Assembly: GCA_036277095.1 (NCBI GenBank)
Contig: DASUNP010000067.1
Location: 67,551 to 131,550 of the forward strand
Origin: Blastocatellia bacterium
GTDB taxonomy: Bacteria; Acidobacteriota; Blastocatellia; UBA7656
Direction: 5' to 3'
DNA length: 64,000 nucleotides
Shown: positions 4,235 through 42,877 of the stretch, one piece after another
Numbering within the stretch: the first letter of the stretch is position 1
How the letters are laid out: the number at the start of each line of letters is the position of its first letter
Notes under the pieces: model-generated
The model's input: only the letters and a program-made list of their open reading frames with translations
What the model was told of the DNA's origin: nothing
Databases searched by the model: none
Made by a program: the position numbers and the translations under genes

Positions 4235-5047
4235 CTAGCAGACCTCTTTACGCCGTGCGTAAAGTAGCCCTAACTTGTCATGATCTCGCTTGCTGGGGCG
4301 TACCTGACAGACAAAGCCAGATGCCTCTAAAACGCTCTTGCATCGTGTTAGCGCGCCCGCACAAAGGTAGTCATGATATTCGAGGGCTACGCACTTAATC
4401 TTGCTTAGAGTCGAGTGCGTGGCCCCTTCTAGCAGGTCGGCTTCAGCCCCTTCGATATCGATCTTAAGCAATTCAACTGCTTGTCCAATCCGATCCACAA
4501 CTTCATTCAGATCGATCATCGGCACGGTAATCGAACCTTCTTCGTCTGAAAGAGCGGTTGTCCCATAGCCTGAAGCAATCACGCTAGGCACGTTTGTCCA
4601 CATTCTGAAATCAGAACGTACGCGCCCAACCGCTTCGTCGTATATCCTCACCCTATCTTTTTTGCCATTGACGATAATGTTATGGCGCAAGGTCTCATTA
4701 GTCTTGGGATTTGGCTCGTAAGCATGAATAAAAAGCTTGTCTGATTTCTTAGTACAATAGAGGGTAAATGCTCCGATATTAGCGCCGATATCAAGCACCA
4801 CGCCTTCTCTTGGAAAATCAAAGTGTTGGCTATAACACTCGTCCGCGAAAATTTCGAGCACCAGTGCTACCGGGCCATCAGCGATTGTATGGTGCAAATT
4901 TAGTCCGCAACGCAGTTGTAGTGTCGGCAAAGGGGCGTTTGAAAAATAAGGACGCCAAATCTCTTTCCAATTAACAAACCACTTCATCATTCTGAGTAGA
5001 ACCCAGTAGGAACGTAGTTTCTCAGTTATTTTGTTTGCAGGCATCAT
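4235..5047 (-). CDS. FkbM-family methyltransferase
   Basis: 270 aa; VLDIGANIGAFTLYC ... YEPNP motifs typical of Methyltransf_21/FkbM. Confidence 0.75.
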   Translation of the reverse strand: MMPANKITEKLRSYWVLLRMMKWFVNWKEIWRPYFSNAPLPTLQLRCGLNLHHTIADGPVALVLEIFADECYSQHFDFPREGVVLDIGANIGAFTLYCTKKSDKLFIHAYEPNPKTNETLRHNIIVNGKKDRVRIYDEAVGRVRSDFRMWTNVPSVIASGYGTTALSDEEGSITVPMIDLNEVVDRIGQAVELLKIDIEGAEADLLEGATHSTLSKIKCVALEYHDYLCAGALTRCKSVLEASGFVCQVRPSKRDHDKLGLLYARRKEVC

Positions 5048-5976: not shown

Positions 5977-5990
5977 AGTTCTTCAGCGCC

Positions 5991-9230: not shown

Positions 9231-9236
9231 GTAAAA

Positions 9237-27940: not shown

Positions 27941-28657
27941 TGCTAATCCTCCTGGACATCACACGATCAACGCAAAAGCTGTTGTAGCAGCTACGGGCTG
28001 GCGCATAAACCATAAATCGCCCTTTGATAATTGCGTAATAAACGTATCGCCAATAATAACCCTAACTTCGCTTCTTTATAAATAGATTAAAGCCCCGGAC
28101 AGACTGCGCCCCCGGAGGGTTAAGCCCCGAAGGGAAGCCATAGACCATGGCGAATTACGAAAGTCAAAACCTGCTCCGAGTAAAGCTTCGTGTAAGTGGC
28201 GCGAGAAGCTTCAGCATCGGCGCGTTATCGATTTGGGGGCCCAAAGCCGCGCAAGCATCGGCGATGCGGTTAAAGGGGGAACCTGGTAAGCGCCCTCCTG
28301 CGAACCTGCAAGAGTGAGATTTGAGAGGCGTCTGGCGATCGAGACCTGAGCTTAAAGCACCATCCCCGCATATTCGTTATTCAAGCTTCGGTCTGAACCC
28401 GCGCCCGCAGAAGCGCTACAAGGCCGTCGGAAATATACTAACCGCAAACTTTGCTGTCAATATAATGTGCTGACTCGGGCAGACCTACAAACCGGCTTAA
28501 AGTAGATATACTTACAACCATCGACAATACAACGGCTACGAACATGGGGCGCTAAGATAAAGGATTGCGGCAAAAGTTTTTATTGGTATAATCCGCCAGT
28601 GCGATCAGATTGTTGACACTTCAAAGGATCGCCGGCTATTGAGAGCCGCCAGCGAAA

Positions 28658-28990
28658 GTGGTTTCGCGCATCTACGCAATCCGGGAGGGCATTAAGCAAA
28701 ACGAAATGGTCATCCCTTTTTCCACGCGGATATCTATTCCGCCGGACGTGCTTGTGTCCGCGTTAGCAGGCGAGTCTGTCTTACTGAACCTGAAGAGTGA
28801 GAAGTACTTTGGCCTGGACGAAATGGGGACGCGCATGTGGGGCGCGCTTACTTCGTCCAGATCGATTCAAGAGGCGTATGAGATTCTGCTGGCGGAATAC
28901 GATGTAGAGGCCGAGCGATTGCGCCGCGACCTGAGCGATTTAATAGAGAAGCTCGCCGAGCAGGGACTAATAGATGTTCACCATGAATAA
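28658..28990 (+). CDS. lasso peptide biosynthesis B1 protein (PqqD-family RRE)
   Basis: 110 aa; PqqD-like SVLLNLKSEKYFGLDEMGTRMWGAL ... ; first gene of a B1-B2-C series. GTG start in the track; the ATG at MVIPFST is an alternative. Confidence 0.8.
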   Translation: MVSRIYAIREGIKQNEMVIPFSTRISIPPDVLVSALAGESVLLNLKSEKYFGLDEMGTRMWGALTSSRSIQEAYEILLAEYDVEAERLRRDLSDLIEKLAEQGLIDVHHE

Positions 28991-29447
28991 ATGGCGCAAA
29001 TTCATCGGACTGTCGGCACGAGAGCGATGGCTGTTGTCGCAATCGCTCGTGCTGTTGCCGTTTGCTGCGGCGGCCTTGTCTGTGATGGGGCTCAGGAGAT
29101 ATCAGAGACTGATGGATAGATTCTCGCGCGCCATTAAGCCGGATGTCGCCGGGGACGAGCGAGAGCTTCGCGACCGAGTTCGTAAGACGGCCCGCCTGGT
29201 AGAGGCGGCGAGAAGGTACGGGCCTTACCGTGCGAAGTGCTTGCCCGAATCGCTAACCCTGTGGTGGCTTTTGCGCCGGCAAGGGATCGAAAGCCAGGTC
29301 AAATTCGGCGCGCGCAAAAATGATCGCCGGATGGAAGCACATGCCTGGGTGGAGTTCGAAGGAGTTCCGCTCAACGACACCACAGATGTCATGGAGCGTT
29401 TCAAGCCTTTCGAGCCCGCCGTCCTGCCCGAGGAGTTGAAGACATAA
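28974..29447 (+). CDS. lasso peptide biosynthesis B2 protein (transglutaminase-like leader peptidase)
   Basis: 157 aa; Cys (AKCLPESLTLWWLL), His (EAHAWVEF) and Asp (LND) of the catalytic triad; 17-bp overlap with B1. Confidence 0.85.
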   Translation: MFTMNKWRKFIGLSARERWLLSQSLVLLPFAAAALSVMGLRRYQRLMDRFSRAIKPDVAGDERELRDRVRKTARLVEAARRYGPYRAKCLPESLTLWWLLRRQGIESQVKFGARKNDRRMEAHAWVEFEGVPLNDTTDVMERFKPFEPAVLPEELKT

Positions 29448-31306
29448 TGAGCGGCATTATCGGCATCGTCAATCTGGATGGCAGACCGGTCAGCCGGGAA
29501 TTGTTACGCCGGATGACAGACTTCATGGCCTATCGCGGCCCGGACGCGCAACAGATTTGGAGCGCGGGGCACATCGGATTCGGCCACGCGATGCTGCGCA
29601 CGACCAGAGAGTCAATCAATGAGCGCCAGCCTCTGAGCCTGGATAGAGAAGTTTGGATTACTGCGGACGCGCGAATCGATGGCCGGAACGAGCTGATCGG
29701 CAAATTAGAGTCTAAAGTCGCAGCCGACCTCGCAGGTGTTACGGATGTCGAGCTAATTCTTCACGCCTACAACGCCTGGGGCGAAGGATGTCTGGAACAT
29801 CTGATAGGCGATTTCGCCTTTGCGATATGGGATGGGCGGAAGCGGCGATTGTTTTGCGCTCGCGACCATTTCGGGGTGAAGCCTTTTTACTATGCGCACG
29901 TAGATAATAGTTTGATATTCAGCAACACGCTCAATTGCGTGCGATTGCACCCTGCGGTTTCGGATGAATTAAACGAGCGAGCCATCGGCGATTTCCTGCT
30001 CTTTGGTCTTAATCAAGAATTCAATACAACGACATTTGCTGACATCAAGCGTCTGCCCCCTGCCCACTACTTGCTATTGTTGGCTGGACGAAAGCAGGCA
30101 CGTCGTTACTGGACCTTACCTACGGAGGAACAAATCCGGTACAGGCGCGATGACGAATATGTTGAGCATTTCAAATATCTATTGCGAGAAGCGGTTGGTG
30201 ATAGGCTTCGCGCTAAGAAGATCGCCGTTAGTATGAGCGGTGGGCTCGATTCCACATCAGTGGCGGCAATTGCTAAAGAAGTATCATCTGAGAAACTCGA
30301 TCTGCAAGCCTTCACTATGATTTATGACAGGTTGATACCTGATCAAGAGCGGTACTATTCAGGATTAGCAGCGGAAGGGCTTGGCATCCCGATTCACTAC
30401 CTTGTATTGGACGACTATAAGTTGTATGAGCGATGGGGTTGTCCAGAACATCGTTTTCCTGAGCCGATGCATTTCCCACTGTCAGCATTCGTTTCAGATC
30501 ATCTAATGCGAATCTCATCGCACAGCCGAATAGTTCTGAGTGGCGATGGCGGTGACCCGGCACTATATTTTTCGCAGGCGTATTTTGCTCAACAGCTAAA
30601 GAGGTTTCGATTTTGGCCTGTAGCTTCGTTTATAGCGCGATACGTGCGAACCTATCGGCGGTTTCCAAAACTCGGTTTCCGCACAACGCTGAAGCGCTGG
30701 GCAGGGACTTACTTGGAGTGGAAACATCCTTATCCAATTTGGGTCGAACAGGTTTTTGCGGACCGCTACAACCTGCAAGCGAGGCTGGAATGGGTGAGCA
30801 AAGTATCAGGACCGATTCATCCGACTCGCCCGGAAGCCTATAATTTCCTCACTATGATTGATTGGCCGAACACTTTTGAGTGCGCAGACCCGGGGGCGAC
30901 ATCTATTCCGGTCGAATATCGTTATCCATTTTTTGATCTCCGTTTAGTAAGCTACTTATTGGCAATCCCTCCCTTACCCTGGTGTGCGCACAAGGAAATA
31001 GTTCGCAGGGCGATAAAAGGGTGGTTGCCGGACCCGGTGCGGCTCCGGGCAAAAACGGCCCTGGCCGGAGATCCTTACACTGAACTTATAAAGCAACCCG
31101 ATTCAGACTGTATAGATCGGTTCTCTCCGATGGCCGAATTAACCAGATATATCGATGTAAATGCCATCCCACAGATTGCTCAAGAAAAGGATCCATATAA
31201 GTTATGGTTGAATACTCGTCCAGTTAGTTTAAACTACTGGCTTCGGGATTATAGATCAGTGGGAATTGCCGCAAACAAGGAGAGTTGCTATGAAATCGCA
31301 AGATAA
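29447..31306 (+). CDS. lasso peptide isopeptide-bond-forming cyclase (asparagine-synthetase-like, C protein)
   Basis: 619 aa; AsnB-like N-domain (MSGIIGIV...) and PP-loop SMSGGLDSTSVAAIA; TAATG overlap with B2. Confidence 0.85.
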   Translation: MSGIIGIVNLDGRPVSRELLRRMTDFMAYRGPDAQQIWSAGHIGFGHAMLRTTRESINERQPLSLDREVWITADARIDGRNELIGKLESKVAADLAGVTDVELILHAYNAWGEGCLEHLIGDFAFAIWDGRKRRLFCARDHFGVKPFYYAHVDNSLIFSNTLNCVRLHPAVSDELNERAIGDFLLFGLNQEFNTTTFADIKRLPPAHYLLLLAGRKQARRYWTLPTEEQIRYRRDDEYVEHFKYLLREAVGDRLRAKKIAVSMSGGLDSTSVAAIAKEVSSEKLDLQAFTMIYDRLIPDQERYYSGLAAEGLGIPIHYLVLDDYKLYERWGCPEHRFPEPMHFPLSAFVSDHLMRISSHSRIVLSGDGGDPALYFSQAYFAQQLKRFRFWPVASFIARYVRTYRRFPKLGFRTTLKRWAGTYLEWKHPYPIWVEQVFADRYNLQARLEWVSKVSGPIHPTRPEAYNFLTMIDWPNTFECADPGATSIPVEYRYPFFDLRLVSYLLAIPPLPWCAHKEIVRRAIKGWLPDPVRLRAKTALAGDPYTELIKQPDSDCIDRFSPMAELTRYIDVNAIPQIAQEKDPYKLWLNTRPVSLNYWLRDYRSVGIAANKESCYEIAR

Positions 31307-31421
31307 AACAACTGCGAAGAAAGATTATAATACCCCCAAGCTGTTCATCTATGGAAATATTTCTCAGCTCACACAGAATATAACCGACATGGGGATGAAT
31401 GATAACCCGACTATGAAGACT
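31290..31421 (+). CDS. lasso peptide precursor (A peptide), 43 aa. It is absent from the ORF track (under 60 aa).
   Basis: MKSQDKTTAKKDYNTPKLFIYGNISQLTQNITDMGMNDNPTMKT. The leader fits the lasso consensus Y-x2-P-x-L-x3-G-x5-T-x exactly (Y13..T28-Q29). An AAGGAG RBS lies 8 nt upstream. The gene overlaps the C gene's 3' end by 17 bp. Predicted core NITDMGMNDNPTMKT, with Asp9 as ring acceptor. Confidence 0.7.
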
Positions 31422-31483
31422 TAGCAGTTCGTTGCTCATCACAGATAGCATCTGAAGCTGCTCAATGTCTATTCGTTAAGATC

Positions 31484-32509
31484 ATGTATTTGGCCTATTC
31501 CCTTTACGGCTTGTGCCTGCAAACTAATCTACCTCTTCCTGGCTTAATTCCCCGACCCTCTGCCTCGAAAATAGATGCTCATGTGTGGCTACAATTTATA
31601 CCAGATGCTTTGCTTGGTAAGAGTGAGACACAGGCAAAGCTTGTGTATGCCAGCCAAAATCAGGATGAACTTGGAGAGCCTGTGCTGAAAGCCTGGGAGC
31701 TAATGGACGGGAGCTTTTTCCGGCTGCGTTACAGCGATGGGACGGAGTTCGTTATCGACCGCGAAGGTGCTCAGATATGGTGCACTTGGCCGGATAATTT
31801 AACGATTGAGGACACAACCGTTTATCTTCTTGGTCCAATATTCGGATTTGTACTACGTCTTCGCGGAACGCTCTGCTTGCATGCAAGCGCTATCGCCGTA
31901 GGAGAATATGCAATCGCAATTGTAGGTCCCGCCGGGACTGGAAAATCTACAACCGCCGCAGCGCTTGCGAAGTCAGGATTTCCAGTATTGACAGATGATG
32001 TATTAGCGCTTACCGATATGGATGGCATATTTATGGCTCAACCCGCCTATCCGCACCTGCGCTTATGGCCGGCATCAGTGAATATCTTATATGGTAAACC
32101 GGACGCCCTGCCGAGATTGGTGCCGGGGGATTCATTATGGGATAAACGCTACCTGAATCTCACCGAGAATGATTATATGTTTCAACGCCATCCGCTCCCT
32201 CTCGCGTCAATATACCTGTTAAGCGAACGCACTGAAGATTCAGCAGCTCCATTTATCGAATCAATGTCTGCAAGCGCCGGCTTGATGACTCTTGTTACGA
32301 ATACTTACGCGAACCATCTTCTGAATACTTCGAGGCGCGCCCAAGAATTTGGCTTACTGAGCCGCATCGCATCCAGCCTGCCGGTGCGACGAGTAATACC
32401 TCATGCCAGCCCGTTCTTTCTGTCAAAACTCTGTGAAGTGATCATCAATGATTTTCATCAACAGGTTGAATCGAATAGAATGAGCACGGCGGAAGAAGCG
32501 CAACTCTGA
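31484..32509 (+). CDS. HPr-kinase/phosphorylase-like kinase (lasso precursor kinase homologue)
   Basis: 341 aa; P-loop GPAGTGKSTTAAALA followed by the LTDD motif typical of the HprK C-domain; this family is known in phosphorylated lasso clusters (paeninodin type). Confidence 0.7.
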   Translation: MYLAYSLYGLCLQTNLPLPGLIPRPSASKIDAHVWLQFIPDALLGKSETQAKLVYASQNQDELGEPVLKAWELMDGSFFRLRYSDGTEFVIDREGAQIWCTWPDNLTIEDTTVYLLGPIFGFVLRLRGTLCLHASAIAVGEYAIAIVGPAGTGKSTTAAALAKSGFPVLTDDVLALTDMDGIFMAQPAYPHLRLWPASVNILYGKPDALPRLVPGDSLWDKRYLNLTENDYMFQRHPLPLASIYLLSERTEDSAAPFIESMSASAGLMTLVTNTYANHLLNTSRRAQEFGLLSRIASSLPVRRVIPHASPFFLSKLCEVIINDFHQQVESNRMSTAEEAQL

Positions 32510-32569
32510 ATAAGTAGTGCCTGAAATACGGCGCTGTGATTCTTCAGCAGAGGAAAGCTTTTTGTTGTA

Positions 32570-33193
32570 GTGAGACCAAAGATGCCGGACTCTGATTTTT
32601 TCACTCGCTTCGGATTCTTTGCGGTCAAAGGTTTTCTTGACACGCGATTATGCGCAAGATTTCGATCCGAGATGCTTTCAACTGCACTCTCCCCCACAAC
32701 GGTCGTAGACGCCTACACATCTCAAGACATGCTGAAAGAGAAGGTCCGCAAAAGTTTGCATGCGGAAGTCTCTCAATCATCCACATTGCTTGTAAAAGAG
32801 CGTTTGATGGCTCTAAGGGGAAAGCTGGAGAATCATTTTGAGTTGTCGTTCGACAGTTGCGAGAAGCCACAGTTCCTGGTTTACAAAGAAGGAGGCTACT
32901 TTCAACCACACAGGGATGGGGAAGACGAAGCCGGCAAGCCTGAATATATTAAGAGCCGCCAGATATCTATAGTTGTATTCTTGAACCGAGAGTCTGACAG
33001 GCCCGCGCCCAATGCATACTGCGGCGGGGCGCTGACGTTCTACGGGTTGATAGATGATCCTAAGTGGAAAAGGTATGGCTTTCAATTGAAGGGCGAAACG
33101 GGGATGCTGGTTGCCTTCAGGGCGGGGGTCCTTCATGAAGTCACGACCGTTACACACGGAACACGTTGCTCGATTGTTAGCTGGTTCTTCTGA
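32570..33193 (+). CDS. 2OG-Fe(II) oxygenase superfamily protein
   Basis: 207 aa; HxD (FQPHRDGED) ... distal His (VLHEVTTVTHG) facial triad; P4H/PhyH-like. Confidence 0.65.
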   Translation: MRPKMPDSDFFTRFGFFAVKGFLDTRLCARFRSEMLSTALSPTTVVDAYTSQDMLKEKVRKSLHAEVSQSSTLLVKERLMALRGKLENHFELSFDSCEKPQFLVYKEGGYFQPHRDGEDEAGKPEYIKSRQISIVVFLNRESDRPAPNAYCGGALTFYGLIDDPKWKRYGFQLKGETGMLVAFRAGVLHEVTTVTHGTRCSIVSWFF

Positions 33194-33223
33194 TTTCAAC
33201 CTATAGTAAACTGAGAAGTCATA

Positions 33224-34393
33224 ATGTATAGCATCACCAGCTATGGCAAGATGATTGCCGACCATGTACGCACAGAGGCTTATGCGCATGCTTTGCGTCG
33301 GGCGATAAAGCCCGACTCGGTCGTCCTCGATATCGGAACGGGGATAGGCATCTTTGCGATGCTGGCCTGTCAATTCGGCGCGCGACGAGTCTATGCCATT
33401 GAGCCGGATGATGCCGTCCAGGTTGCGCGAACGATCGCCGCAGATAACGGCTTTGCCAACCGCATTGAGTTTATTCAAGAACTCTCTTCTCGTATCACAT
33501 TATCTGAGCGAGTCGATCTGATCGTCTCTGACTTGCGGGGCGTGCTGCCTTTGTTTCGTCATCACATTCCGTCAATCATCGATGCTCGAAAGCGCTTCCT
33601 TGCTCCAGACGGCATACTGATACCACAGCAAGACACTTTATGGGCGGCAGTGTCGGAAGCCCCGGATCTGTATGAACGCTATTCGACGCTCTGGAGCGAT
33701 AATGCTTATGGGCTTGACCTCGGCGCAGCCCGGCGATTAGCGGTTAACACCTGGCAGAAAGGCCGAGTCGCCTCCGATCAGCTTTTAACGCCTCCTCAAC
33801 AATGGGCTACGCTCGATTATTATTCTATAGAGAGCGCCAACATCAGCGCTGAAATGATCTTTACCGCGATGCGCGCGGGGACTGCTCACGGCTTGAGCCT
33901 GTGGTTCGACGGCCTGCTCGCTGAAGGAGTGAGTTTTTCGAACGCTCCCGGCCAGCCCGAATTAATCTATGGCAGCGCCTTCTTCCCATTCTCTTCTCCC
34001 GTAACGCTGGCCGTCGGCGATAGAGTCTCCGTTAAGCTTTCGGCAGACCTCGTAGTCGATGATTACGTCTGGCGGTGGAATACTCAGGTGGCGGGTCAGG
34101 GCGATGAGATCAAAGCCGATTTCAAACAGTCTACTTTCTTCGGCGCGCCGCTGTCTCCGAATCAACTGCGCAAACGAGAGAGCAGCTATGTCCCTGCGCT
34201 TGATAAAGAGGGGCAGATCGACCGGCTCATCCTTTCTCTCATGAACGGGCAGAATTCTCTAAGCGATATTGCTCACACAGTTGCAACTGATTTCCCGGAC
34301 CGCTTCAAAAGCTGGCAGGATGCGCTGAACCGCGCAGGCGAGCTCTCTGTTAAATACAGCAACCGGTCCGGCCTCTCTCATGCTTCGCAATGA
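33224..34393 (+). CDS. PRMT-fold (protein arginine N-methyltransferase-like) class I methyltransferase
   Basis: 389 aa. MIADHVRTEAYAHAL and VLDIGTGIGIFAMLACQFGARRVYAIE align with PRMT motif I/post-I. The double-E loop is replaced (SDLRGV instead of SEWMGY). Confidence 0.65.
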   Translation: MYSITSYGKMIADHVRTEAYAHALRRAIKPDSVVLDIGTGIGIFAMLACQFGARRVYAIEPDDAVQVARTIAADNGFANRIEFIQELSSRITLSERVDLIVSDLRGVLPLFRHHIPSIIDARKRFLAPDGILIPQQDTLWAAVSEAPDLYERYSTLWSDNAYGLDLGAARRLAVNTWQKGRVASDQLLTPPQQWATLDYYSIESANISAEMIFTAMRAGTAHGLSLWFDGLLAEGVSFSNAPGQPELIYGSAFFPFSSPVTLAVGDRVSVKLSADLVVDDYVWRWNTQVAGQGDEIKADFKQSTFFGAPLSPNQLRKRESSYVPALDKEGQIDRLILSLMNGQNSLSDIAHTVATDFPDRFKSWQDALNRAGELSVKYSNRSGLSHASQ

Positions 34394-35589
34394 AACCGTC
34401 AAGTCGCGCAGTCTCCGGCATGATCTCTGAACACGAGTTGCTCGTATGCTGCGCCCGGACATATCTGGATTCTAAGAGCGCCGCGCGCGTTGCCGCGCTC
34501 GTTCAACAGCGAATAGACTGGGATTACCTGGTCCGAGCGGCTACACATCACAGCCTGCTTCCGCTCCTGCACTCACATCTGAGCGCAATCTGCCCCGATG
34601 ACATTCCCGGCGCCGCCTCCAACCGGCTCAAAGAGCATTCTCAGAATAACAGCAGAAACAGTCTTCTCCTCACAGGCGAGCTGATTAAGCTTCAACGGCT
34701 TTTTCAGTCTCAAGATATTCCGATGGTCCCGTTTAAGGGGCCGATCCTGGCCGCCTGTTTCTATGGCGATGTAGGGCTCAGGCAGTTTAGCGACCTCGAC
34801 CTGTTGGTCCGCAAACAGGACGTGTTCAAAGCCAGGGATATTCTCATCTCTGCTCAATACCTTCCGCGCTACCGGTTGGGCGCGACGCAACGGGCGGCGA
34901 TGGTCGAGCAAAAGTGCGAGGAGCCCTTTGACCGGGACGATAACGCTGCGACGGTCGATCTACACTGGGCAGTTATACCAACGCGATTCTCTTTCGCGCC
35001 CGATATCGCCTCGATATGGCAGGGGCTTGAGCGAGTCTCGCTCAGCGGCTGCGAGTTTCTGACGGTCGCGCCCGAAGATCTGATTATGCTGATCTGCATA
35101 CATGGCGCAAAGCATGCCTGGGAGCGATTGGGCTGGATATGCGACCTGGCGGAGTTGATTCGCGCCCGCAGAAGTTTGGATTGGAACTCAGTCATCGAGA
35201 CGGGAAGACGAAGCGGCGGCCAAAGAATTCTTTCTCTCGGTCTTTTCCTGGCGAGCGATCTGCTGGATGCGCCGCTCCCGCCGGGAGTTTTCGAAAGCGT
35301 GCAATCTGATAGACAGGTCCGGTCGCTTGCGGCGAAAGTTTATTCGAATCTCTCGCGCAGGATTGATAGACAGATAAGTGTCTTTGAAAGGGACCTGTTT
35401 TACCTCCAATCCATGAATCGCGTAAAGGATCGCGCGCATTTACTGTCGGACCATATAAAGCCGACGCCTCTCGAATGGCAGATGGTGCCGCTGCCCCCGT
35501 ATCTCTCCTTCTTTTATTATCCGCTGCGCCCTATCAGGATAATCGAGAAACACTGGCAGAGTTTAACTAAACGCATGTTATCGAAATGA
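34390..35589 (+). CDS. nucleotidyltransferase-family protein (PF14907-like 'uncharacterised NTP transferase')
   Basis: 399 aa; FSDLDLLV motif; ATGA overlap with the methyltransferase; this family co-occurs with kinases in lasso clusters. Confidence 0.6.
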   Translation: MKPSSRAVSGMISEHELLVCCARTYLDSKSAARVAALVQQRIDWDYLVRAATHHSLLPLLHSHLSAICPDDIPGAASNRLKEHSQNNSRNSLLLTGELIKLQRLFQSQDIPMVPFKGPILAACFYGDVGLRQFSDLDLLVRKQDVFKARDILISAQYLPRYRLGATQRAAMVEQKCEEPFDRDDNAATVDLHWAVIPTRFSFAPDIASIWQGLERVSLSGCEFLTVAPEDLIMLICIHGAKHAWERLGWICDLAELIRARRSLDWNSVIETGRRSGGQRILSLGLFLASDLLDAPLPPGVFESVQSDRQVRSLAAKVYSNLSRRIDRQISVFERDLFYLQSMNRVKDRAHLLSDHIKPTPLEWQMVPLPPYLSFFYYPLRPIRIIEKHWQSLTKRMLSK

Positions 35590-35668
35590 GACTGGTCAAA
35601 CCTACTCGTTGAATGTACATTGGTGATCCGAAAGCACGCGCCATGCGCCCTTAAATTAATTCGCAGAC

Positions 35669-37495
35669 ATGACGACTACCACGGCATCAATTAACAGAAT
35701 TTTTATCGCCACTTTGCTCGGCGAAATGTCGTGGAGAGTGGTCCTGGTCCTTACGCTCATGCTCTCGCTCGGCCTTATCGAAGGCATCGGGCTGATACTT
35801 CTAATCCCTCTGCTTGGGCTCACGGGCATAGATGTTCAACAAGGCGCGGTCGGCGCAATCGATAGCTTCGTCGCGTCAGCTTTCAATGTCGCGGGCCTGC
35901 GCCCGACTCTCATGTCTGTGCTGGCCGTTTATGTCGCAATCACAATTGCTCACTCGCTCTTACAACGCTGGCAAACGGTGAGCAGCGCTTCGCTTGAAAA
36001 CGAATTTGTAGATCGTCTCAGGCAGCGGCTCTATAAATCGATCACGAATGCGAACTGGCTATTTTTCTCCAGGTCGAAAGCTTCCCATTTCACTCACGCG
36101 CTCACTTCGGAGCTTGACCGTGTAGATATCGCAACCTATAGCCTGCTTGCCATAGTCGTCAACTGCGTCGTCGCCTCAGTCTACATAATCCTGGCTTTGC
36201 GTTTGTCCGTGCCGATGACGGTGCTGGTCTTCGCTTGCGGAGCGGCGCTCCTGCTCCTGCTTAAAGGCAAGATGCGAAAGGCGCGTTTGAGCGGGGAAGC
36301 TCTCTCTGATGCGACAGGGGAGATGCACTCTTCTTCGCTGGAGCACTTCGGCGGCATAAAAGTGGTGAAAGCCTATAACGCCGAACGGCGCAATATAAAG
36401 ATCTTTTCGGAGTTGACCCGTCGCGTCACGCGCATCTACGACGCCTACACGCGCGACCATGCGAATATGAAACTCTGGTTCGACGTGGGCGCTGTGCTTG
36501 TCCTGGCGGTGATTCTTTACGTCTCCATAGGGGTGGCTTCTATGCCCGCGGCGGGCGTGCTCGTCTTGATATTCCTGTTCGCGCGCATCATGCCAAAGCT
36601 CTCAACCATACAGCAGAACTATCAGCGTTACGTTCACGCGCTGCCTGCGTTCGCTGCCGTGATGGATGTAGAATCGCGCTGCCTGGCGGCATCCGACCCG
36701 GCGCCTACAGATACAGAGCCTGTGCAGTTCCGGCAGTCCGTGAGGCTCGACCGCGTAGATTTCGAATATGAGCCTGGCGGGTTTCGATTACAGGCGCTTG
36801 ACCTGACAATCGCATTCGGCGATATGACGGCTATAGTCGGCCAATCGGGCGCGGGCAAAAGCACTATAGCAGACCTTCTCCTGGGCCTGGTCGCACCCGG
36901 GCGAGGCCGTGTCTTGATCGATGACGCCGTTTTAGAAGCAAAGCTCATTAAAGGCTGGCGCGACCAGATCGGCTACGTTGCGCAGGACACTTTCTTATTT
37001 CACGACACGGTCAGGGCCAACCTGCTATGGGCGCGGCCCGAGGCAACCGAGCAAGAGTTGTGGGATGCGTTGAGGCTCGCGGCGGCAGATGAGTTCGTTA
37101 AGGATTTGCCTCAAAGACTTGAAACAGTCCTGGGCGATCGCGGCGTGAGGCTTTCGGGCGGCGAGAGACAACGAATAGCATTGGCGCGCGCGCTGCTGCG
37201 CAAGCCGCAGCTCTTGATACTTGACGAGGCCACGAGCGCGCTCGATTCAGAAAATGAAAAGCGCATACTCTCTGCCATAGAAGAGTTGCACGGCCGTCTC
37301 ACTATACTCGTCATTGCCCACAGGCTCTCTACAATCAGAACAGCGGATCACATTTATCTTATCGAACGGGGCAGATTGATCGAACACGGAGATTGGTCTT
37401 CGCTCATCACCAGGGAAGGCGGCAGGTTTCAAGCCTTCTTTAAGGCGCAGAACCTTGAAGTTGTCCCTGACACACAGAAGGTTTCTTATGATTGA
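35669..37495 (+). CDS. ABC transporter, fused permease/ATPase (lasso exporter D)
   Basis: 608 aa; 6 TM N-domain; Walker A GQSGAGKST; signature LSGGERQRIALARALL; Walker B LILDEATSALD. Confidence 0.85.
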   Translation: MTTTTASINRIFIATLLGEMSWRVVLVLTLMLSLGLIEGIGLILLIPLLGLTGIDVQQGAVGAIDSFVASAFNVAGLRPTLMSVLAVYVAITIAHSLLQRWQTVSSASLENEFVDRLRQRLYKSITNANWLFFSRSKASHFTHALTSELDRVDIATYSLLAIVVNCVVASVYIILALRLSVPMTVLVFACGAALLLLLKGKMRKARLSGEALSDATGEMHSSSLEHFGGIKVVKAYNAERRNIKIFSELTRRVTRIYDAYTRDHANMKLWFDVGAVLVLAVILYVSIGVASMPAAGVLVLIFLFARIMPKLSTIQQNYQRYVHALPAFAAVMDVESRCLAASDPAPTDTEPVQFRQSVRLDRVDFEYEPGGFRLQALDLTIAFGDMTAIVGQSGAGKSTIADLLLGLVAPGRGRVLIDDAVLEAKLIKGWRDQIGYVAQDTFLFHDTVRANLLWARPEATEQELWDALRLAAADEFVKDLPQRLETVLGDRGVRLSGGERQRIALARALLRKPQLLILDEATSALDSENEKRILSAIEELHGRLTILVIAHRLSTIRTADHIYLIERGRLIEHGDWSSLITREGGRFQAFFKAQNLEVVPDTQKVSYD

Positions 37496-37742
37496 CACGT
37501 GTAGCACTCGAAGATAGAATAGCGCCGCGTCTTTAAAGGCGCCGGTCGTCACGTTGATCTCATGACAGTGACTTCATCGCATGGCCGAATCATAAAACAA
37601 CTCCTCTCATCACTCCATCCCCAGTAACGAAATCAAATACCAGCACGACGATGCCGGTCTGTCATCAGACGGATTCGACGGCCCGTCCACCATCAGCCGC
37701 AGCCTGTACAGACCCCAGAACGAAATTGCAGGAAGGAATTCC

Positions 37743-38225
37743 ATGAGAAGAGAACCGTTCATGACGTTACCCCTGGCGAGAAGAGACGGGTTGTTAGTTC
37801 GGGAGATGAATGAAGAGATGCTGGTCTATGACCTGCAACGACATAAAGCGCACTGCTTGAACCGCCCCGCCGCTCTGGTATGGGGCCACTGCGACGGAAA
37901 GGCTAGCGTGGCTGAAGTGGCGCGGCTCGTCGGAGAGAAGATAGGAACACCGCTTGACGAAGAGACGATCCGCCATGCCTTAACTCAACTCGATCGGGCG
38001 GCGCTGTTAGAGAGGCGGATAACGCAAGCCGGTAACACTAGAAGATTATCCCGCAGACAGGCAGTGCGCAGATTGAGTGCGGCTGCGGTGGCCGCCGTGC
38101 CGATTGTGACAACCATCGTTGCGCCGCAGGCGGCAGAAGCCGCGACCTGTACACGCGCCGGGGAGACGTGCACAGGGCTGCCCTGCTGCGGCAGCGCTAC
38201 GAGGTGCTTTGTCGGCAGGTGCTAA
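37743..38225 (+). CDS. PqqD-like (RRE) domain protein with a hydrophobic/Tat-like segment and a C-terminal 6-Cys tail
   Basis: 160 aa. LVYDLQRHKAHCLNRPAALVWGHCDGKASVAEVARLV matches the PqqD fold. Then SRRQAVRRLSAAAVAAVPIVTTIVAPQAAEAA, followed by TCTRAGETCTGLPCCGSATRCFVGRC (C-x6-C-x4-CC-x5-C-x4-C). Confidence 0.5.
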   Translation: MRREPFMTLPLARRDGLLVREMNEEMLVYDLQRHKAHCLNRPAALVWGHCDGKASVAEVARLVGEKIGTPLDEETIRHALTQLDRAALLERRITQAGNTRRLSRRQAVRRLSAAAVAAVPIVTTIVAPQAAEAATCTRAGETCTGLPCCGSATRCFVGRC

Positions 38226-38234
38226 CTCTATTCA

Positions 38235-39323
38235 ATGAATAACAGCCTTGCACAGTCTCGGGGAAGTCAGATCGCCGCCGTGCTCGCAGGCTCATGGCGC
38301 GACCATCCCCCGCCCTTGAAAATATCGGGCGGCCAATTGGCCGAGATAACTTCGGCATTGCTCGCGACGGGGACCGCGCCCCTTTGTTGGAGGCGTCTTC
38401 TTCATTCTAAAACGGAAGCGCGCGCAGCCTTAGAGTTAAAAGCGGCTTACTACTTTCACACGATTCGGGCCGCCTACCACGAATATGAGGTCGAGCAGGT
38501 CTTCCGGCTGCTGCGTGCAGCGGGCTTAGAGCCCGTGCTGATGAAAGGGTGGGCCGTCGCACGACTTTATCCCGAATCGGGGCTCAGGCCATACGGAGAT
38601 GTAGACCTTTTCATCAGGCCCCGCGAGCGCCGCAAGGCTGCGGCTGTTTTAGCGAGCAATGAAGGCGTGAAACTTAACGTAGACATCGAGCATGAAGAGT
38701 TTGCCTGTGTGAGCGACCGGGCGGCGGATGATTTATGCGCTCGCTCAAAGCTTGTGACGCTGGGCGAAACGCATGTTCGCATTCTCGGCGACGAAGACCA
38801 CCTGCGTATGCTCTGTCTGCACACGCTCAGACATCACGCATGGCGACCGCTGTGGCTCTGCGACATAGGCGTTGTGGTCGAATCTTTGCCGGAAGGTTTC
38901 GATTGGGAGATCTGTCTTGGCGCAAACAAGAGGGAAGCCAACTGGGTCGCCTGCCTGGTCGAGCTGGCGAGCCAGGTTCTCGGCGTCCAACCGCGCGGTG
39001 ATTTTGTGTCGCGCGCCTCGTCGAAGCTGCCGCGCTGGGTCGGGCCCGCGCTTCTAAGAGACTGGGGCAGGTGGCACGGCCCGGGACCTGCGGAGTTGGC
39101 AGCCACGGCGTTCGTGAAGAATGTCAAAAGCCCCTCTCGAATGATTGGCGAGATCATCTCCAGGTGGGATCGCCCGATCAAGGCTACGGTCGAGATGCGA
39201 GGTCCGTTCAATCAATTTCTAAGACTTCCCTTTCAGATCTCTTACGCTCTTTCGCAGACTCCGAGGATCGCCCGACAGGTCGCGCGCGGTTTCTGCAAAG
39301 GGCGAACAGCGGAGGAGCAATGA
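38235..39323 (+). CDS. nucleotidyltransferase-family protein (second PF14907-like paralogue)
   Basis: 362 aa; YGDVDLFIRP motif; 9 bp after the RRE-Cys ORF; its stop overlaps the next gene as ATGA. Confidence 0.55.
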   Translation: MNNSLAQSRGSQIAAVLAGSWRDHPPPLKISGGQLAEITSALLATGTAPLCWRRLLHSKTEARAALELKAAYYFHTIRAAYHEYEVEQVFRLLRAAGLEPVLMKGWAVARLYPESGLRPYGDVDLFIRPRERRKAAAVLASNEGVKLNVDIEHEEFACVSDRAADDLCARSKLVTLGETHVRILGDEDHLRMLCLHTLRHHAWRPLWLCDIGVVVESLPEGFDWEICLGANKREANWVACLVELASQVLGVQPRGDFVSRASSKLPRWVGPALLRDWGRWHGPGPAELAATAFVKNVKSPSRMIGEIISRWDRPIKATVEMRGPFNQFLRLPFQISYALSQTPRIARQVARGFCKGRTAEEQ

Positions 39324-42300
39324 ACAATATTATTTCGCGTTCTATTCGACTCTCACTGGTTGCGGCCTTCTTTATGCTGTCTGCGTCTTCGCCCGCCAAG
39401 GCCCAGATCAGTCTTCCAACTGCATCGCCTTACACACAGAGTTTTGACAGCCTCTCGACATCTGCCACGGCCACGCTGCCTGCGGATTGGAGGGTTGATA
39501 AGATAGACGGGCTCGTCAGGACGGTCGGAAGCTTCACGACGGCAGGTACGGTGACCGAGCAGATCGCCGGTAACGGCATGGCTGTCAATGCAGCTAACGG
39601 CATTTACAACTATGGCGCAGGCGTGGCGAATACAGCGACTGACAGGGCAGCAGGCTGGATCTCATCCGGCACTGCTACGAGAAGCGGAAATCTGTACGCC
39701 CGGTTTATCAACAGCACTGGCGCGAGCGTTTCAAGCCTGAGCATCTCTTACGACATTGAAAAGTACCGTAATGGATCTAACACGGCGGGTTTCAGAATCG
39801 AGATGTTTTATTCATTTGACGGGGCGACCTGGACTGCGGCCCCGGCTAACTTTCTAACAAGCTTTCCAGCCGACGCAAACAACAACGGATTTGCAAGCGC
39901 CCCCGGAGTGATTGTTTCACTCACCAACCAGGTTCTCCAGGTCACAATACCAAACGGCAGCGACTTTTACCTGGCCTGGAACTACTGCGTCACCTCCGGG
40001 ACGACAACGACGAATGCGCAGGCGCTGGGCATCGATAACTTTTCCGTCATAGTCAACACCGTCACAGCGGTCGAGCTTCTTTCATTTACTGCTTCTCAAT
40101 CGGGCGATGGAGTATTGCTCGAATGGGCGACCGGGCATGAAGTCGATAATCTCGGCTTTAACATTTATCGAGAGGACGGGGGCAAGCGCGCTCGCATCAC
40201 CCCTCGGATCGTTGCGGGGTCGGCCTTGCTCGCCGGGTCCGGCAATGCTTTGACGGCCGGGCGGCAGTACAGATGGTTTGACCCCGCCCCCGGCATCGAA
40301 GGCAATATCGATTACTGGCTCGAAGACATAGACCTTAACGGCAAGGTTACGCTGCACGGCCCGATCACGCCCGCGCCCGGCGGTAAGCTATCTCTCAGGT
40401 CCGACTCGCTTCCGCTTTCGAGCGTACAGACTGATACGAGAGCGTGGCAGCGACAGGTAGTTGTTTCGAATGTCGGTAAGAATTCTCATCCGCATTCGGC
40501 TCAAGAATCTTTGAACAGTCTCCAGACCCAGTGGGAAATTGCGGCGGGCCCTGCCGTGAAGATCACGATCAAGAAAGACGGGTGGTACCGCGTGACCCAG
40601 CCCGCCCTCGTAGCCGCCGGCCTGGACCCGTCGCGCGACCCGCGCCTGCTAAGGCTGTTCGCGGACGCCGAGGAAGTGCCGATCATCGTCAGAGGCGGGC
40701 AGAAGGGGAGGCTTGAGCCGACAGACGTAATAGAATTCTACGGCGCGACGCTCGACACGCCCTCCACAGACAGGCGCGTCTACTGGCTCACGTCCGGCAA
40801 TCAGCCGGGCCGCAGAATAACCATTCTGGCGGGAGAAGCCGTCAAACCGACGGGTGGGGGCAGCTTCCCCTACACAGTCGAGAGAAAGGAGCGCAGCGTC
40901 TACTTTGCGGCGTTGATAAACGGGGAGGCGGAGAACTTCTTCGGCCCAGTAGTCACAGCCGATCCGGTCGCTCAGGAATTCCGGATCGAGAACCTCGACA
41001 AGGGATCGACCGACAAAGCCAGGCTCGAAGTGGCCTTGCAAGGCGTAACCGATGTCACAAATGTTGCGCCCGACCACAGCGTGAAAGTGAAGCTCAACGG
41101 GGTAGAGATAGGCTCTGTCGCCTTCGACGGGCAGGCGCGCAAGATTACCGAGATAATCTTCTCTAATCAATTGCTGCTCGAAGGATCAAACGACATCACG
41201 CTTGTCGCCGAAGGCGGCGAGATGGACGTGAGTCTGATAGATCACATCAGGCTCACCTACGCGCACAGATTCCGCGCGGACGGGGACGCGCTCGAACTGA
41301 GCGCCATCGGCGGAGAGCCGATAACCGTAACGGGCTTCAGCCAGCCCGCAATCCGGGTATTCGACATCACTGACCCGAACGACGTGCAAGAGATGACTCC
41401 AATAGTCGAAGCGCAAGGATCTGAATTCGCCATCACCTTCAGGGCGAATGCTTCGGGCGAGAGGCGGCTCCTCGCCCTGGTCGACCATCTTGCGCAAGCG
41501 CCTTTCACAGTCACGGCCAACCGGCCTTCGACTTTGAACCGCGCGGGCAACGGGGCGAATTTTATCATCATCACGCACGGCCTATTCGCCGCCGCGATGG
41601 AGCCGCTAAAGCGATTGCGGCAGGGCCAGGGCTTGAGCGCGACTATCGTCGACGTGGAAGATGTCTATGACGAGTTCAGCCACGGGGCGCACTCTCCGCA
41701 GGCAGTAAAAGATTTCCTGGCGCGGGCCGCGACCGTTTGGAAGAAGCGGCCCGGCTGGGTGATGTTTGCCGGGGACGCCAGCTTCGACCCGAGAGACTAT
41801 CTCAATCTGGGTGAAAGCGACTTCGTGCCGACGAAGCTCATAGACACGTCCGGGCTTGAGACGGCTTCGGACGACTGGTTGGCAGACTTCGACTCTGACG
41901 GATTGCCCGAGATGGCTGTGGGCCGCCTGCCCGTGCGCACTGTCGGCGAGGCCGGAGCGGTAATAGAAAAGATCATGGGCTACGCTCAGGCGGGCAGGGC
42001 CGAAGGCGCGTTGATGGTTGCCGACCGCAACGACGGGTATGATTTCGAGGCCGCAAGCCTGAGCGTGAAAGCGCGACTTCCTGCCGACGTAATCGCGCAG
42101 GAGGTCTTTCGGGGGAGGGTAGACGACGCGACGGCCAGGCAGCAGATCATTGACGCGGCCAGGCGAGGTCCTAAGATTGTCAACTACCTCGGGCACGGGT
42201 CGGCTGGGACATGGAGAGGGGACCTGTTGACATCGTCGGATGCCGCCGCTCTTCAGAATTCAGAGGGGCCATCGTTATTCGTGATGATGACGTGCCTGAA

Positions 42301-42565
42301 CGGATTCTTCCACGACCCTTACGGAGACAGCCTCGCCGAATCGCTGATGAAGTGCGAGCGTGGTGGAGCCGTGGCGGCATGGGCTTCGTCGTCGCTGACA
42401 ACACCGGGCGGGCAGTCGGCAATGAATCAGCGGTTTTATCAGCTCTTGTTCGCGGGCAACCTGACGCTGGGCGAGGCGGCAATGAGGGCAAAGCTCGCCG
42501 CGAGTGACACGGACATTCGCCGGACCTGGATACTGTTCGGCGACCCGACATTAAAGATCAAATAA
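39320..42565 (+). CDS. secreted C25-family (gingipain-like, clan CD) cysteine peptidase, large multidomain (start trimmed to the signal peptide Met; the track starts at 39071)
   Basis: Signal peptide MNNIISRSIRLSLVAAFFMLSASSPAKAQ; catalytic His (NYLGHGS) and Cys (MMTCLNGFF); C-terminal ILFGDPTLKIK. Confidence 0.75.
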   Translation: MNNIISRSIRLSLVAAFFMLSASSPAKAQISLPTASPYTQSFDSLSTSATATLPADWRVDKIDGLVRTVGSFTTAGTVTEQIAGNGMAVNAANGIYNYGAGVANTATDRAAGWISSGTATRSGNLYARFINSTGASVSSLSISYDIEKYRNGSNTAGFRIEMFYSFDGATWTAAPANFLTSFPADANNNGFASAPGVIVSLTNQVLQVTIPNGSDFYLAWNYCVTSGTTTTNAQALGIDNFSVIVNTVTAVELLSFTASQSGDGVLLEWATGHEVDNLGFNIYREDGGKRARITPRIVAGSALLAGSGNALTAGRQYRWFDPAPGIEGNIDYWLEDIDLNGKVTLHGPITPAPGGKLSLRSDSLPLSSVQTDTRAWQRQVVVSNVGKNSHPHSAQESLNSLQTQWEIAAGPAVKITIKKDGWYRVTQPALVAAGLDPSRDPRLLRLFADAEEVPIIVRGGQKGRLEPTDVIEFYGATLDTPSTDRRVYWLTSGNQPGRRITILAGEAVKPTGGGSFPYTVERKERSVYFAALINGEAENFFGPVVTADPVAQEFRIENLDKGSTDKARLEVALQGVTDVTNVAPDHSVKVKLNGVEIGSVAFDGQARKITEIIFSNQLLLEGSNDITLVAEGGEMDVSLIDHIRLTYAHRFRADGDALELSAIGGEPITVTGFSQPAIRVFDITDPNDVQEMTPIVEAQGSEFAITFRANASGERRLLALVDHLAQAPFTVTANRPSTLNRAGNGANFIIITHGLFAAAMEPLKRLRQGQGLSATIVDVEDVYDEFSHGAHSPQAVKDFLARAATVWKKRPGWVMFAGDASFDPRDYLNLGESDFVPTKLIDTSGLETASDDWLADFDSDGLPEMAVGRLPVRTVGEAGAVIEKIMGYAQAGRAEGALMVADRNDGYDFEAASLSVKARLPADVIAQEVFRGRVDDATARQQIIDAARRGPKIVNYLGHGSAGTWRGDLLTSSDAAALQNSEGPSLFVMMTCLNGFFHDPYGDSLAESLMKCERGGAVAAWASSSLTTPGGQSAMNQRFYQLLFAGNLTLGEAAMRAKLAASDTDIRRTWILFGDPTLKIK

Positions 42566-42580
42566 TTCCTGTCGCCATTC

Positions 42581-42625
42581 GCTTGTGCGGCTCCGGTGCA
42601 TTTGCGAGTTAGGCGCGATTTCGCA
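42581..42625 (+). repeat. intergenic repeat copy R1 (consensus CGCTCCGGTGCATGTGCTTGTTAGG ... TTYGCA)
   Basis: Aligns with copies at 45171-45227, 45951-45995 and 47071-47115, all in the same orientation. Confidence 0.55.
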
Positions 42626-42877
42626 GGCCCGAACTGAGTCCTTCTCGTAAGAATGTTCTTACTGGCTTTGAATGCTCTGTCTACTTAATTACGTCATGTG
42701 TTATGTAAGAGTTTACCTGCTGCTTCTTGGCAAGGATAGAATTTTATTGCCGATGAATTATCAGAGTGCGATGAGCTTTAACAACGCAGCAGGCCGTCCG
42801 CGAGTATAGCTTATTCACGCCCTGAACACCTTCTGGCTACATGCTGGCCAATGTTACCGCCTAAAAGGAGAATTTCT

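Follow-up and report, generated by a model that had tools for sequence, protein, structure and literature searches.

A probable nine-gene lasso peptide cluster with kinase, nucleotidyltransferase-like, oxygenase and PRMT-derived methyltransferase genes in a Blastocatellia bacterium, and a neighboring RRE-knottin gene pair

Gene content of the locus

The window analyzed here is a stretch of 64,000 nt from a Blastocatellia bacterium, and our subject is a lasso peptide gene cluster within it. Eleven open reading frames (ORFs), all on the plus strand, fill the interval under study, positions 28658 to 39323, in the order B1-B2-C-A-K-Ox-MT-N1-ABC-RC-N2. An earlier reading of the sequence alone had named these genes in this order, all eleven ORFs were found as it described them, and identical genes were called independently on a Logan contig in which the cyclase is identical. 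The same reading took the host for a non-Firmicute, and three proteins of the window are indeed named by NCBI as those of a Blastocatellia bacterium metagenome-assembled genome (MAG), from an uncultured soil member of the Acidobacteriota. The locus is confirmed as a lasso peptide gene cluster of the type that has a kinase and an NTP_transf_5 protein. We hold with good confidence that the cluster consists of nine genes at 28658 to 37495, called the lasso block below, and that RC and N2, with or without the Peptidase_C25 gene downstream of them, make up a separate unit. The lasso block contains the following genes.

28658 to 28990, plus strand: B1, stand-alone recognition element for peptides made on the ribosome and then modified posttranslationally (RiPP recognition element [RRE], PqqD family); alternative ATG at 28706
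28974 to 29447, plus strand: B2, transglutaminase-like leader peptidase (NF033537, PF13471)
29447 to 31306, plus strand: C, Asn-synthetase-like lasso macrolactam cyclase (NF033535, below cutoff; PF00733; GATase_7)
31290 to 31424, plus strand: A, 44-amino-acid precursor; GGAG Shine-Dalgarno sequence 7 nt upstream; 17-nt overlap with C
31484 to 32509, plus strand: K, HprK-like peptide kinase, 341 amino acids (weak HprK_rel_A, ScmC, and Hpr_kinase_C matches)
32582 to 33193, plus strand: Ox, Fe(II)/2-oxoglutarate (2OG) oxygenase of the prolyl-4-hydroxylase (P4H) superfamily, 203 amino acids (PF13640)
33224 to 34393, plus strand: MT, S-adenosylmethionine (SAM) methyltransferase derived from the protein arginine methyltransferases (PRMTs), 389 amino acids (PrmA and PRMT_C)
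34390 to 35589, plus strand: N1, NTP_transf_5 protein (PF14907); ATGA overlap with MT
35669 to 37495, plus strand: ABC (D), ATP-binding cassette exporter, a permease-ATPase fusion (ABC_membrane and ABC_tran); final gene of the lasso block

Almost every junction had been described as translationally coupled, which overstates the case. Coupling is seen at B1/B2 and C/A, where genes overlap by 17 nt, at B2/C (TAATG), and at MT/N1, the one ATGA overlap within the interval; the remaining six junctions are gaps of 9, 30, 60, 72, 79, and 247 nt. The lasso genes have a GC content of 0.49 to 0.55 (for the C, A, K, and Ox genes, values of 0.38 to 0.50 are also given), against 0.56 for the window and 0.59 to 0.60 for RC, N2, and the Peptidase_C25 gene. 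As a compositional signal, the low GC content of C, A, K, and Ox would fit an acquisition of the lasso block by horizontal transfer. No strong terminator lies inside 28658 to 37495, an Rfam scan of positions 27000 to 43000 returned no RNA family, and no tRNA was found in the window. A decayed cluster was considered and rejected: all of the ORFs are intact, catalytic residues are present, and the genes are conserved in relatives at 66 to 88% identity.

Lasso core proteins and the precursor family

The class assignment made from the sequence alone is upheld by the matches of B1, B2, and C to PF05402, PF13471, and PF00733, respectively, with C falling under the cutoff of the more specific model NF033535. 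B1 matched PF05402 with 63.6 bits (cutoff, 23.4) and lasso_PqqD_Bac with 60.5 bits. B2 matched NF033537 (lasso_biosyn_B2) with 95.2 bits (cutoff, 33) and PF13471 with 87 bits; Cys89, His123, and Asp135 are a candidate catalytic triad, read off the sequence without alignment to a characterized B2. In C, the PF00733 (Asn_synthase) and GATase domains are both above their cutoffs, and the gene context makes its assignment as a lasso cyclase safe. Domain scans also agree with the reading of the locus as a kinase and nucleotidyltransferase lasso cluster to which a 2OG oxygenase and a PRMT-fold methyltransferase have been added.

The precursor gene (31290 to 31424) has 44 codons and encodes MKSQDKTTAKKDYNTPKLFIYGNISQLTQNITDMGMNDNPTMKT, which divides into the leader MKSQDKTTAKKDYNTPKLFIYGNISQLTQ and the core NITDMGMNDNPTMKT. 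Leader residues Y13, P16, L18, and T28 correspond to Y(-17)xxP(-14)xL(-12) and T(-2), with the core starting at Asn30. This Y/P/L spacing equals that of BsfA, the Bradymonas sediminis precursor in which the cut site was determined experimentally and the leader has Y(-17), P(-14), and L(-12) (PMC10368454). The core has 15 amino acids and no Cys, Asp9 is its sole possible ring acceptor, and it ends in Lys-Thr (...MKT). From these features an isopeptide ring between Asn1 and Asp9 with a six-residue tail is predicted, and the unmodified lasso peptide has a calculated monoisotopic mass of 1663.70 Da. The sequence-only reading had placed the peptide with the paeninodin and pseudomycoidin type, in which the C-terminal residue is Ser; that part does not apply to a core that ends in Thr after Lys.

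Homologous precursors occupy the same position at more than 40 loci (labels of the type L001 to L171 denote homologous loci in other genomes or metagenome contigs). Fifty distinct family precursors have the leader Y-x-x-P-x-L-x-x-Y-G-x5-T-x in common. Where the kinase gene precedes the methyltransferase gene, the cores end in [KR]-[TS]-x(0-2), as in MKT, DKTG, PKTGT, TKTA, FKSGG, and DRTH. A second clade has the methyltransferase gene before the kinase gene (order C-A-MT-K; L048, L052 to L054, L059, L060, L063, L066, and L088), with a methyltransferase about 33 to 40% identical; in these cores, Met-rich hydrophobic ends (MMACL, MIACL, KMPCL, and MKMAM) replace the [KR]-T tag. Core position 1 is unusually variable in the family (N, A, G, S, T, K, or Q). 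When residues are numbered from the conserved T(-2)-x cut and core positions before 7 are set aside, the first acidic residue lies at position 9 in 19 cores, 10 in 14, 8 in 11, 11 in 2, and 7 in 2, so that 16 of the 50 precursors have it at position 10 or 11 (including L003, L010, L013, L018, L030, L035, L037, and L038). Known lasso rings have 7 to 9 residues. Either the cut site drifts within the family, or some members form rings larger than any known.

Kinase and N1 protein

The kinase carries the motif H133-G148-G151-G153-K154-S155-D171-D172, equal in residues and spacing to the motif H148-G163-G166-G168-K169-S170-D186-D187 of BsfK, which was validated by mutation (PMC10368454). N1 matched PF14907 with 207.9 bits and has a metal-binding-type D135-x-D137. 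A candidate functional analog is PsmN, an "uncharacterized nucleotidyltransferase" that places one or two hexoses on the phospho-Ser of pseudomycoidin and loses activity in the D134A/D136A variant (PMC6993621). The DxD sites of N1 and PsmN are comparable, and the two are likened here by a shared family description, not by sequence.

Methyltransferase

The profile of the MT family aligned with structures of type I PRMTs (PRMT2, PRMT8, PRMT1, and PRMT6) at E values of about 1e-40 over some 270 residues. MT itself has PrmA and PRMT_C (34 bits) matches, a SAM-binding Rossmann motif, VLDIGTGIG, at 34 to 42 with E60, a conserved N-terminal helix (M10, D13, R16, and Y20), and a beta-barrel domain, so that the Rossmann SAM site, the N-terminal helix, and the barrel are common to MT and PRMT1, -2, -6, and -8. 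It differs from those enzymes in both catalytic loops and in an added C-terminal helical domain. The double-E loop reads S-D103-L-R-G-V-L-P-L-F-x112-H-H, in which an invariant Asp stands in for the first Glu and the position of the second is variable, and in place of the THW loop there is a near-invariant E246-L-I-Y-G250. The helical extension of about 80 amino acids was modeled with a predicted local distance difference test score (pLDDT) of 80 to 93. A Pfam scan of the extension alone gave nothing significant. The idea that the extension might be an RRE was dropped: hhalign of the MT family against B1 returned a probability of 8%, with no similarity.

To judge from these sequences, MT is not a conventional arginine methyltransferase, since most cores of the family have no Arg. 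The likely substrate is instead the C-terminal segment of the precursor, to judge from the conserved tag of a basic and a hydroxyl residue and from how nearly obligate the pairing of MT with the kinase is. Leading options for the methylated group are a Lys or Arg nitrogen, the phosphate, and the C-terminal carboxylate.

A database search with the methyltransferase gave more than 3,700 relatives at E values of 1e-5 or below, and each of the best 120 is at least 58% identical. An MT profile scan that took one genome per species gave 80 loci, in which all ORFs were searched with the window proteins. Forty-one of these, with an MT score of at least 300 bits, are treated here as close loci, and 32 of the 41 have at least 4 kb of upstream DNA. 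Kinase and cyclase genes are both present in 27 of these 32. Among the 41 close loci, the kinase gene lies directly upstream of MT in 22, N1 is conserved (downstream of MT) in 22, the ABC exporter is found in 19, Ox in 2, and an RC homolog in 1. Homologs of MT scoring below 190 bits are mostly without a lasso link. The loci lie in MAGs of Acidobacteriota, Cyanobacteriota, Gemmatimonadota (Longimicrobium), Chloroflexota, Gamma- and Betaproteobacteria, Desulfobacterota, Myxococcota, Deinococcota, and Planctomycetota; at least seven phyla have MAGs with the arrangement B1-B2-C-A-K-MT(-N1-ABC). In L002, L024, and L035 the gene order is rearranged and the genes are still clustered. That the genes stay together despite such rearrangement speaks for a functional unit.

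This gene complement is not confined to the window. The set K-Ox-MT(-N1) also occurs in L002, L044, L098, and L168, and K-MT-N1 is found in dozens of MAGs from different phyla. The cluster belongs to a large family, modular and uncharacterized, in which other members (L120 and L166) are at least as elaborate. At L166, a 597-amino-acid protein of the metallo-beta-lactamase fold is encoded between MT and N1 (4840 to 6633). L120 has a CmcI-like second methyltransferase and, in front of Ox, a dedicated PqqD protein (8090 to 9986), and at L168 a 167-amino-acid protein of no family lies between Ox and MT (9411 to 9914).

Oxygenase and Asp-Asn-Pro cores

The oxygenase matched PF13640 (2OG-FeII_Oxy_3) with 49.6 bits. 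Homologs favor the start at ATG 32582 (MPDSDFFTRFG, 203 amino acids) over GTG 32570 (an ORF of 207 amino acids). Residues H114, D116, H189, and R199, which make up the HxD...H triad and the 2OG-binding Arg, are invariant in 30 homologs (numbered as in the 207-amino-acid ORF; subtract 4 for the 203-amino-acid protein). The nearest solved relatives are PKHD-type hydroxylases (Sbal_3634 and PiuC), 4iw3, the Chlamydomonas P4H, and P3H1. We take 4iw3, deposited as a "putative uncharacterized protein," to be a bacterial prolyl hydroxylase.

The Ox family is small, with 83 matches, and among 80 metagenome loci the gene nearly always comes after a PqqD gene. It is an occasional extra module of the cluster family, and it lies inside kinase-bearing lasso clusters at L088, L096, L098 (as K-Ox-MT), L108, L116, L120, L127, and L128. 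Elsewhere, PqqD-Ox pairs are found outside lasso clusters (L089 to L091, L099 to L101, L106, L118, and L147), often as tandem arrays (PqqD-Ox-PqqD-Ox-PqqD...). These nonlasso arrays suggest another RRE-guided hydroxylation system.

Among close Blastocatellia relatives, the cores of loci with Ox read ...DNPT (the window) and ...DNPP (L168 and L087), and those of loci without Ox read ...DGK (L167, where MT is 83% identical) and ...DGG (L166), with no Pro past the ring. Of the 14 Ox-linked cores, 8 carry Pro among the two residues that follow the ring acid, as against 7 of the other 36 (Fisher P = 0.016, for sequences that are not independent). A looser link, to Pro anywhere in the tail, was dropped as uninformative, such residues being too common among cores without Ox. 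From this correlation of Ox with D-N/S-P cores, we propose that the enzyme acts on the linear precursor bound to B1 and hydroxylates Pro11, with Asn10 as the less likely site.

Comparison with characterized lasso clusters

The paeninodin-type clusters (PadeK, ThcoK, and SyanK) share with the window a split B1/B2, C, an ABC exporter, and an HprK-like kinase with the motif His...GxxGxGKS...DD (Zhu et al. 2016, summarized in PMC9266682 and PMC8498205). Their kinases act near the C terminus of the linear precursor, on an invariant terminal Ser (PMC9266682, PMC8498205). The window differs in its Lys-Thr end (family, [KR]-[TS]-x(0-2)), in gene order, in the added PRMT-like methyltransferase and 2OG oxygenase, and in its acidobacterial host. 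The pseudomycoidin cluster (PsmK and PsmN) pairs a kinase with a DxD nucleotidyltransferase, as the window does, but has no methyltransferase or oxygenase, and its PsmN gene lies between B2 and D (PMC6993621). The spacing of the kinase catalytic residues and of the leader motif is identical in the bsf cluster of Bradymonas sediminis, which has a Gram-negative host, a kinase (BsfK), and a nucleotidyltransferase (BsfN) (PMC10368454). Phosphorylation by BsfK is stimulated by B1 (PMC10368454). The bsf cluster lacks a methyltransferase and an oxygenase, the target of BsfK is core Ser3, and Ile(-2) stands in the leader (PMC10368454), whereas the window has Thr(-2) and a candidate phosphorylation site at the C terminus.

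For the oxygenase, a parallel is CanE of the canucin cluster, an Fe/2OG enzyme that works on the linear precursor, assisted by CanB1 (PMC9266682). CanE beta-hydroxylates the C-terminal Asp (PMC9266682), whereas the window oxygenase falls in the P4H/PKHD branch, and its presence correlates with Asn-Pro just past the ring. SAM-dependent tailoring is likewise familiar from StspM and LasF, which O-methylate the C-terminal carboxyl, and from LihM and TceM, which form aspartimide as enzymes of the protein isoaspartyl methyltransferase (PIMT) type. According to the reviews, StspM was modeled on mitomycin 7-O-methyltransferase and LihM is an aspartate O-methyltransferase; the window enzyme, in contrast, is a type I PRMT homolog with a beta-barrel. 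Relative to the eukaryotic enzymes PRMT1, -2, -6, and -8, besides the altered loops and the extra domain, it is paired with peptides whose cores are usually without Arg.

Reviews from 2021, 2022, and June 2026 list as lasso tailoring (poly)phosphorylation of a C-terminal Ser, PsmN-dependent glycosylation, C-terminal O-methylation, PIMT-type aspartimide formation, CanE hydroxylation, acetylation, acylation, citrullination, epimerization, prenylation, halogenation, cross-links, and dehydroalanine. Phosphorylation of Ser3 by BsfK adds to that list (PMC10368454). No paper on a PRMT-like methyltransferase or a P4H-type oxygenase in a lasso cluster was found in a literature search, one that left most subscription-journal papers outside its reach, and the search returned nothing relevant for "lasso" with PF14907, methyl-phosphate, or phosphothreonine. 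The claim that no characterized member combines a kinase, a nucleotidyltransferase, a 2OG oxygenase, and a PRMT-fold methyltransferase stands in that none appears in the reviews to June 2026 or in the full-text search. By homology, the chemistry implied for the cluster appears to be new for lasso peptides.

Proposed pathway

The following sequence of steps is proposed. B1 would bind the 44-amino-acid precursor through the YxxPxL leader motif. On the linear, leader-bound peptide, the kinase would phosphorylate a hydroxyl in the C-terminal Lys-Thr tag, most likely Thr15, and the P4H-type oxygenase would hydroxylate the tail just past the ring, with Pro11 the most likely position and Asn10 the alternative. 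The methyltransferase would modify the same C-terminal region, by N-methylation of Lys or Arg or by O-methylation of the phosphate or the C-terminal carboxylate, and N1 would decorate the phosphate, by analogy with PsmN. B2 would then cleave after Gln29, and C would close the Asn1-Asp9 ring around the six-residue tail. The ABC transporter would export the product, presumably a small, disulfide-free lasso peptide with several tailoring modifications. Tailoring of a B1-bound linear precursor has precedents in PadeK and ThcoK, in BsfK, and in CanE (PMC9266682, PMC10368454).

Several observations weigh against this pathway and the gene assignments behind it. The product has not been observed, and all of the enzymatic steps are inferred by homology. 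The best NCBIfam match of C, to the lasso cyclase model NF033535 (lass_lactam_cya), scored 404 bits, short of the cutoff of 525. The HprK_C, HprK_rel_A, and ScmC models matched the kinase weakly, with E values of 1e-8 to 1e-4, and its site is not fixed: BsfK uses core Ser3, and the window core has Thr3. Both the Asn at core position 1 and the six-residue tail are unusual, and with acceptor positions that range from 8 to 11 among family members, the cut site is uncertain. The AlphaFold2 model of MT, built from a 23-sequence alignment, has a mean pLDDT of 59.8, with substrate loops below 50. The link between Pro and Ox is imperfect, since at L005, L018, and L043 the core has D-x-P or D-P and no Ox was found in the fetched DNA. 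At L012 (Cyanobacteriota) and L028 (Anaerolineae), MT proteins of 46 to 54% identity have no kinase or lasso core genes within 10 kb. The L012 gene is still followed by ABC and NTP_transf_5 genes, an arrangement that suggests a split cluster or another substrate.

RC-N2 gene pair

Downstream of the exporter gene lie the following features, the last of them outside the interval of the sequence-only reading.

37492 to 37520, plus strand: promoter-like site, sigma-70-like TTGACA-17-TAGAAT with an 11/12 match, past the ABC stop codon and before RC; a consensus match only
37743 to 38225, plus strand: RC, RRE-fold domain, twin-arginine signal-like segment, and six-Cys knottin-like tail; outside the lasso machinery
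38235 to 39323, plus strand: N2, NTP_transf_5 protein of a subfamily other than that of N1 (PF14907, 98 bits); obligate partner of RC
39320 to 42565, plus strand: Peptidase_C25-domain protein, 1,081 amino acids (PF01364, 250 bits); ATGA junction with N2

The N-terminal domain of RC was modeled with AlphaFold2 as beta-beta-beta-alpha-alpha-alpha at a pLDDT of 79 to 91, and its Pfam PqqD match is weak (22.9 bits). The best matches in the PDB are the lasso RRE protein TbiB1 (TM score, 0.73 to 0.74), PqqD, and 6jx3. The domain includes an invariant HKAHCLN strand and is followed by an invariant twin-arginine segment (SRRQ at 103 in the window protein), a hydrophobic stretch, and a cleavage-like Ala-x-Ala (AEA-A at 131 to 134 in the window protein); on the twin-arginine translocation signal model, RC is borderline, at 16.4 bits against a cutoff of 16.7. 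The tail is hypervariable and Cys-rich, from 25 to more than 100 amino acids long, often with the pattern C-x6-C-x5-CC-x3-5-C-x4-C; six Cys are present in the window protein. A profile search at E values of 1e-30 or below gave 1,786 representative proteins. Wherever downstream DNA was available (L082 to L085, L166, L167, L169, and L171), an N2-type NTP_transf_5 gene followed RC. No paper on an RC-N2 pair was found in the literature search described above.

In several genomes the pair has no lasso gene within 6 to 10 kb: L082 (Gemmatimonadota), L083/L084, L085/L171 (one conserved arg-gene setting), and L169 (between rpoC and rpsL). The L170 contig, which stops short of any downstream gene, carries RC twice and has no lasso gene. 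The domain architecture and this distribution indicate that RC-N2 is an autonomous two-gene cassette of a large undescribed family. Judging by its domains, it may be a ribosomal peptide system in which a precursor with its own RRE, a twin-arginine export signal, and a hypervariable knottin-like core is processed or guided by the NTP_transf_5 enzyme, and the family may be more novel than the lasso cluster. Peptidase_C25 also follows RC-N2 at L166, is present as fragments at L167, and is not beside RC-N2 elsewhere.

Alternative readings

The sequence-only reading had included a second RRE and a second nucleotidyltransferase in the lasso machinery, so that all eleven genes from 28658 to 39323 would be one cluster in which RC and N2 further tailor the same lasso peptide. 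RC-N2 does come after the ABC gene in the window, L166, and L167, RC copies adjoin a related lasso cluster at L007, and in structure the N-terminal domain of RC comes nearest to the lasso B1 proteins. We nevertheless find this improbable, given the stand-alone pairs and the isolated RC copies of L170, the related lasso cluster at L168 that has no RC-N2 alongside, and the single RC homolog among the 41 close loci of other genomes. The 247-nt gap with its promoter-like match, the shift to a genome-like GC content, and the 23% identity between N1 and N2 argue in the same direction. At the other extreme, Ox, MT, and N1 might be chance neighbors or parts of another pathway, with a plain lasso peptide as the product. 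MT homologs without lasso genes (L012, L022, L028, L033, and L036) and the several junctions that are gaps rather than overlaps would fit, yet this reading is very hard to credit in view of the co-location of these genes across phyla and through rearrangements, the MT/N1 ATGA overlap, the single strand with no strong internal terminator, and the near-constant placement of the Ox family beside an RRE gene or in a lasso cluster.

A closer competitor to the proposed pathway keeps the nine-gene cluster and changes its chemistry: the kinase would act on Thr3, as BsfK does on its position 3, the methyltransferase would N-methylate a C-terminal Lys or Arg, and the [KR]-T tag would be the methyltransferase recognition site. 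BsfK accepts Thr at position 3 (PMC10368454), and the window core begins N-I-T. The invariant acidic D103 of MT sits at the position of the first catalytic Glu of the PRMTs, and L108, the sole well-covered kinase-lasso locus without MT, has a core that ends in ...CPT with no basic residue. However, core position 3 is not kept as Ser or Thr in the family (NVG, GGN, and AVG), whereas [KR]-[TS] is conserved. In Bacillus subtilis HPr, Ser46 is preceded by Lys, which makes a Lys-Ser/Thr kinase motif plausible and counts against Thr3. The second Glu and the THW loop of the PRMTs are lost in MT, and clade 2 cores such as GASGTVGDGVGAMQMIACL have no Lys or Arg although MT is kept. We therefore consider this chemistry unlikely, though a serious contender, and phosphorylation of the C-terminal tag remains the preferred reading.

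Neighboring genes

Upstream of the lasso cluster and divergent from it, an uninterrupted run of minus-strand genes spans 981 to 27940. Its last two genes, the two that were scanned, encode a GDP-mannose dehydratase and a Wzz/GNVR tyrosine-kinase-type protein, and the run is probably an exopolysaccharide or O-antigen cluster. A polysaccharide neighborhood is also seen at L167 and L168, and at L170 the two RC copies come after a Wzz/GNVR gene. After the Peptidase_C25 gene, at 42851 to 44566, lies a gene for a 571-amino-acid astacin-family metalloprotease with a repeat-rich C-terminal half. Neither the Peptidase_C25 nor the astacin-family gene shows conserved pairing with RC-N2 in other genomes.

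Implications

The boundary drawn here keeps an expression construct free of three irrelevant genes and exposes a separate large undescribed RRE-knottin family. It is possible, and we offer it tentatively, that the methyltransferase with its rebuilt pocket gives the phosphorylated C-terminal tag a modification new to lasso peptides (for example, a methyl phosphate ester or N-methylation of Lys/Arg), that RC-N2 is a new ribosomal peptide system, or both. If true, the methyltransferase chemistry could define a large new lasso subclass, with thousands of MT relatives, many of them in kinase-lasso clusters. Interest in lasso peptides comes from their value as stable scaffolds and antibiotics, and no more than about a dozen reactions that tailor them are known. 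One characterized member would assign roles to two or more enzyme families for which no substrate is known and would test whether bulky C-terminal decorations serve as the lower "plug" of very short lassos. The locus belongs to a large family of broad phylogenetic spread among uncultured soil bacteria, in which phosphorylation would be combined with a PRMT-derived methyltransferase and a PsmN-like enzyme, and in which modules are swapped in and out.

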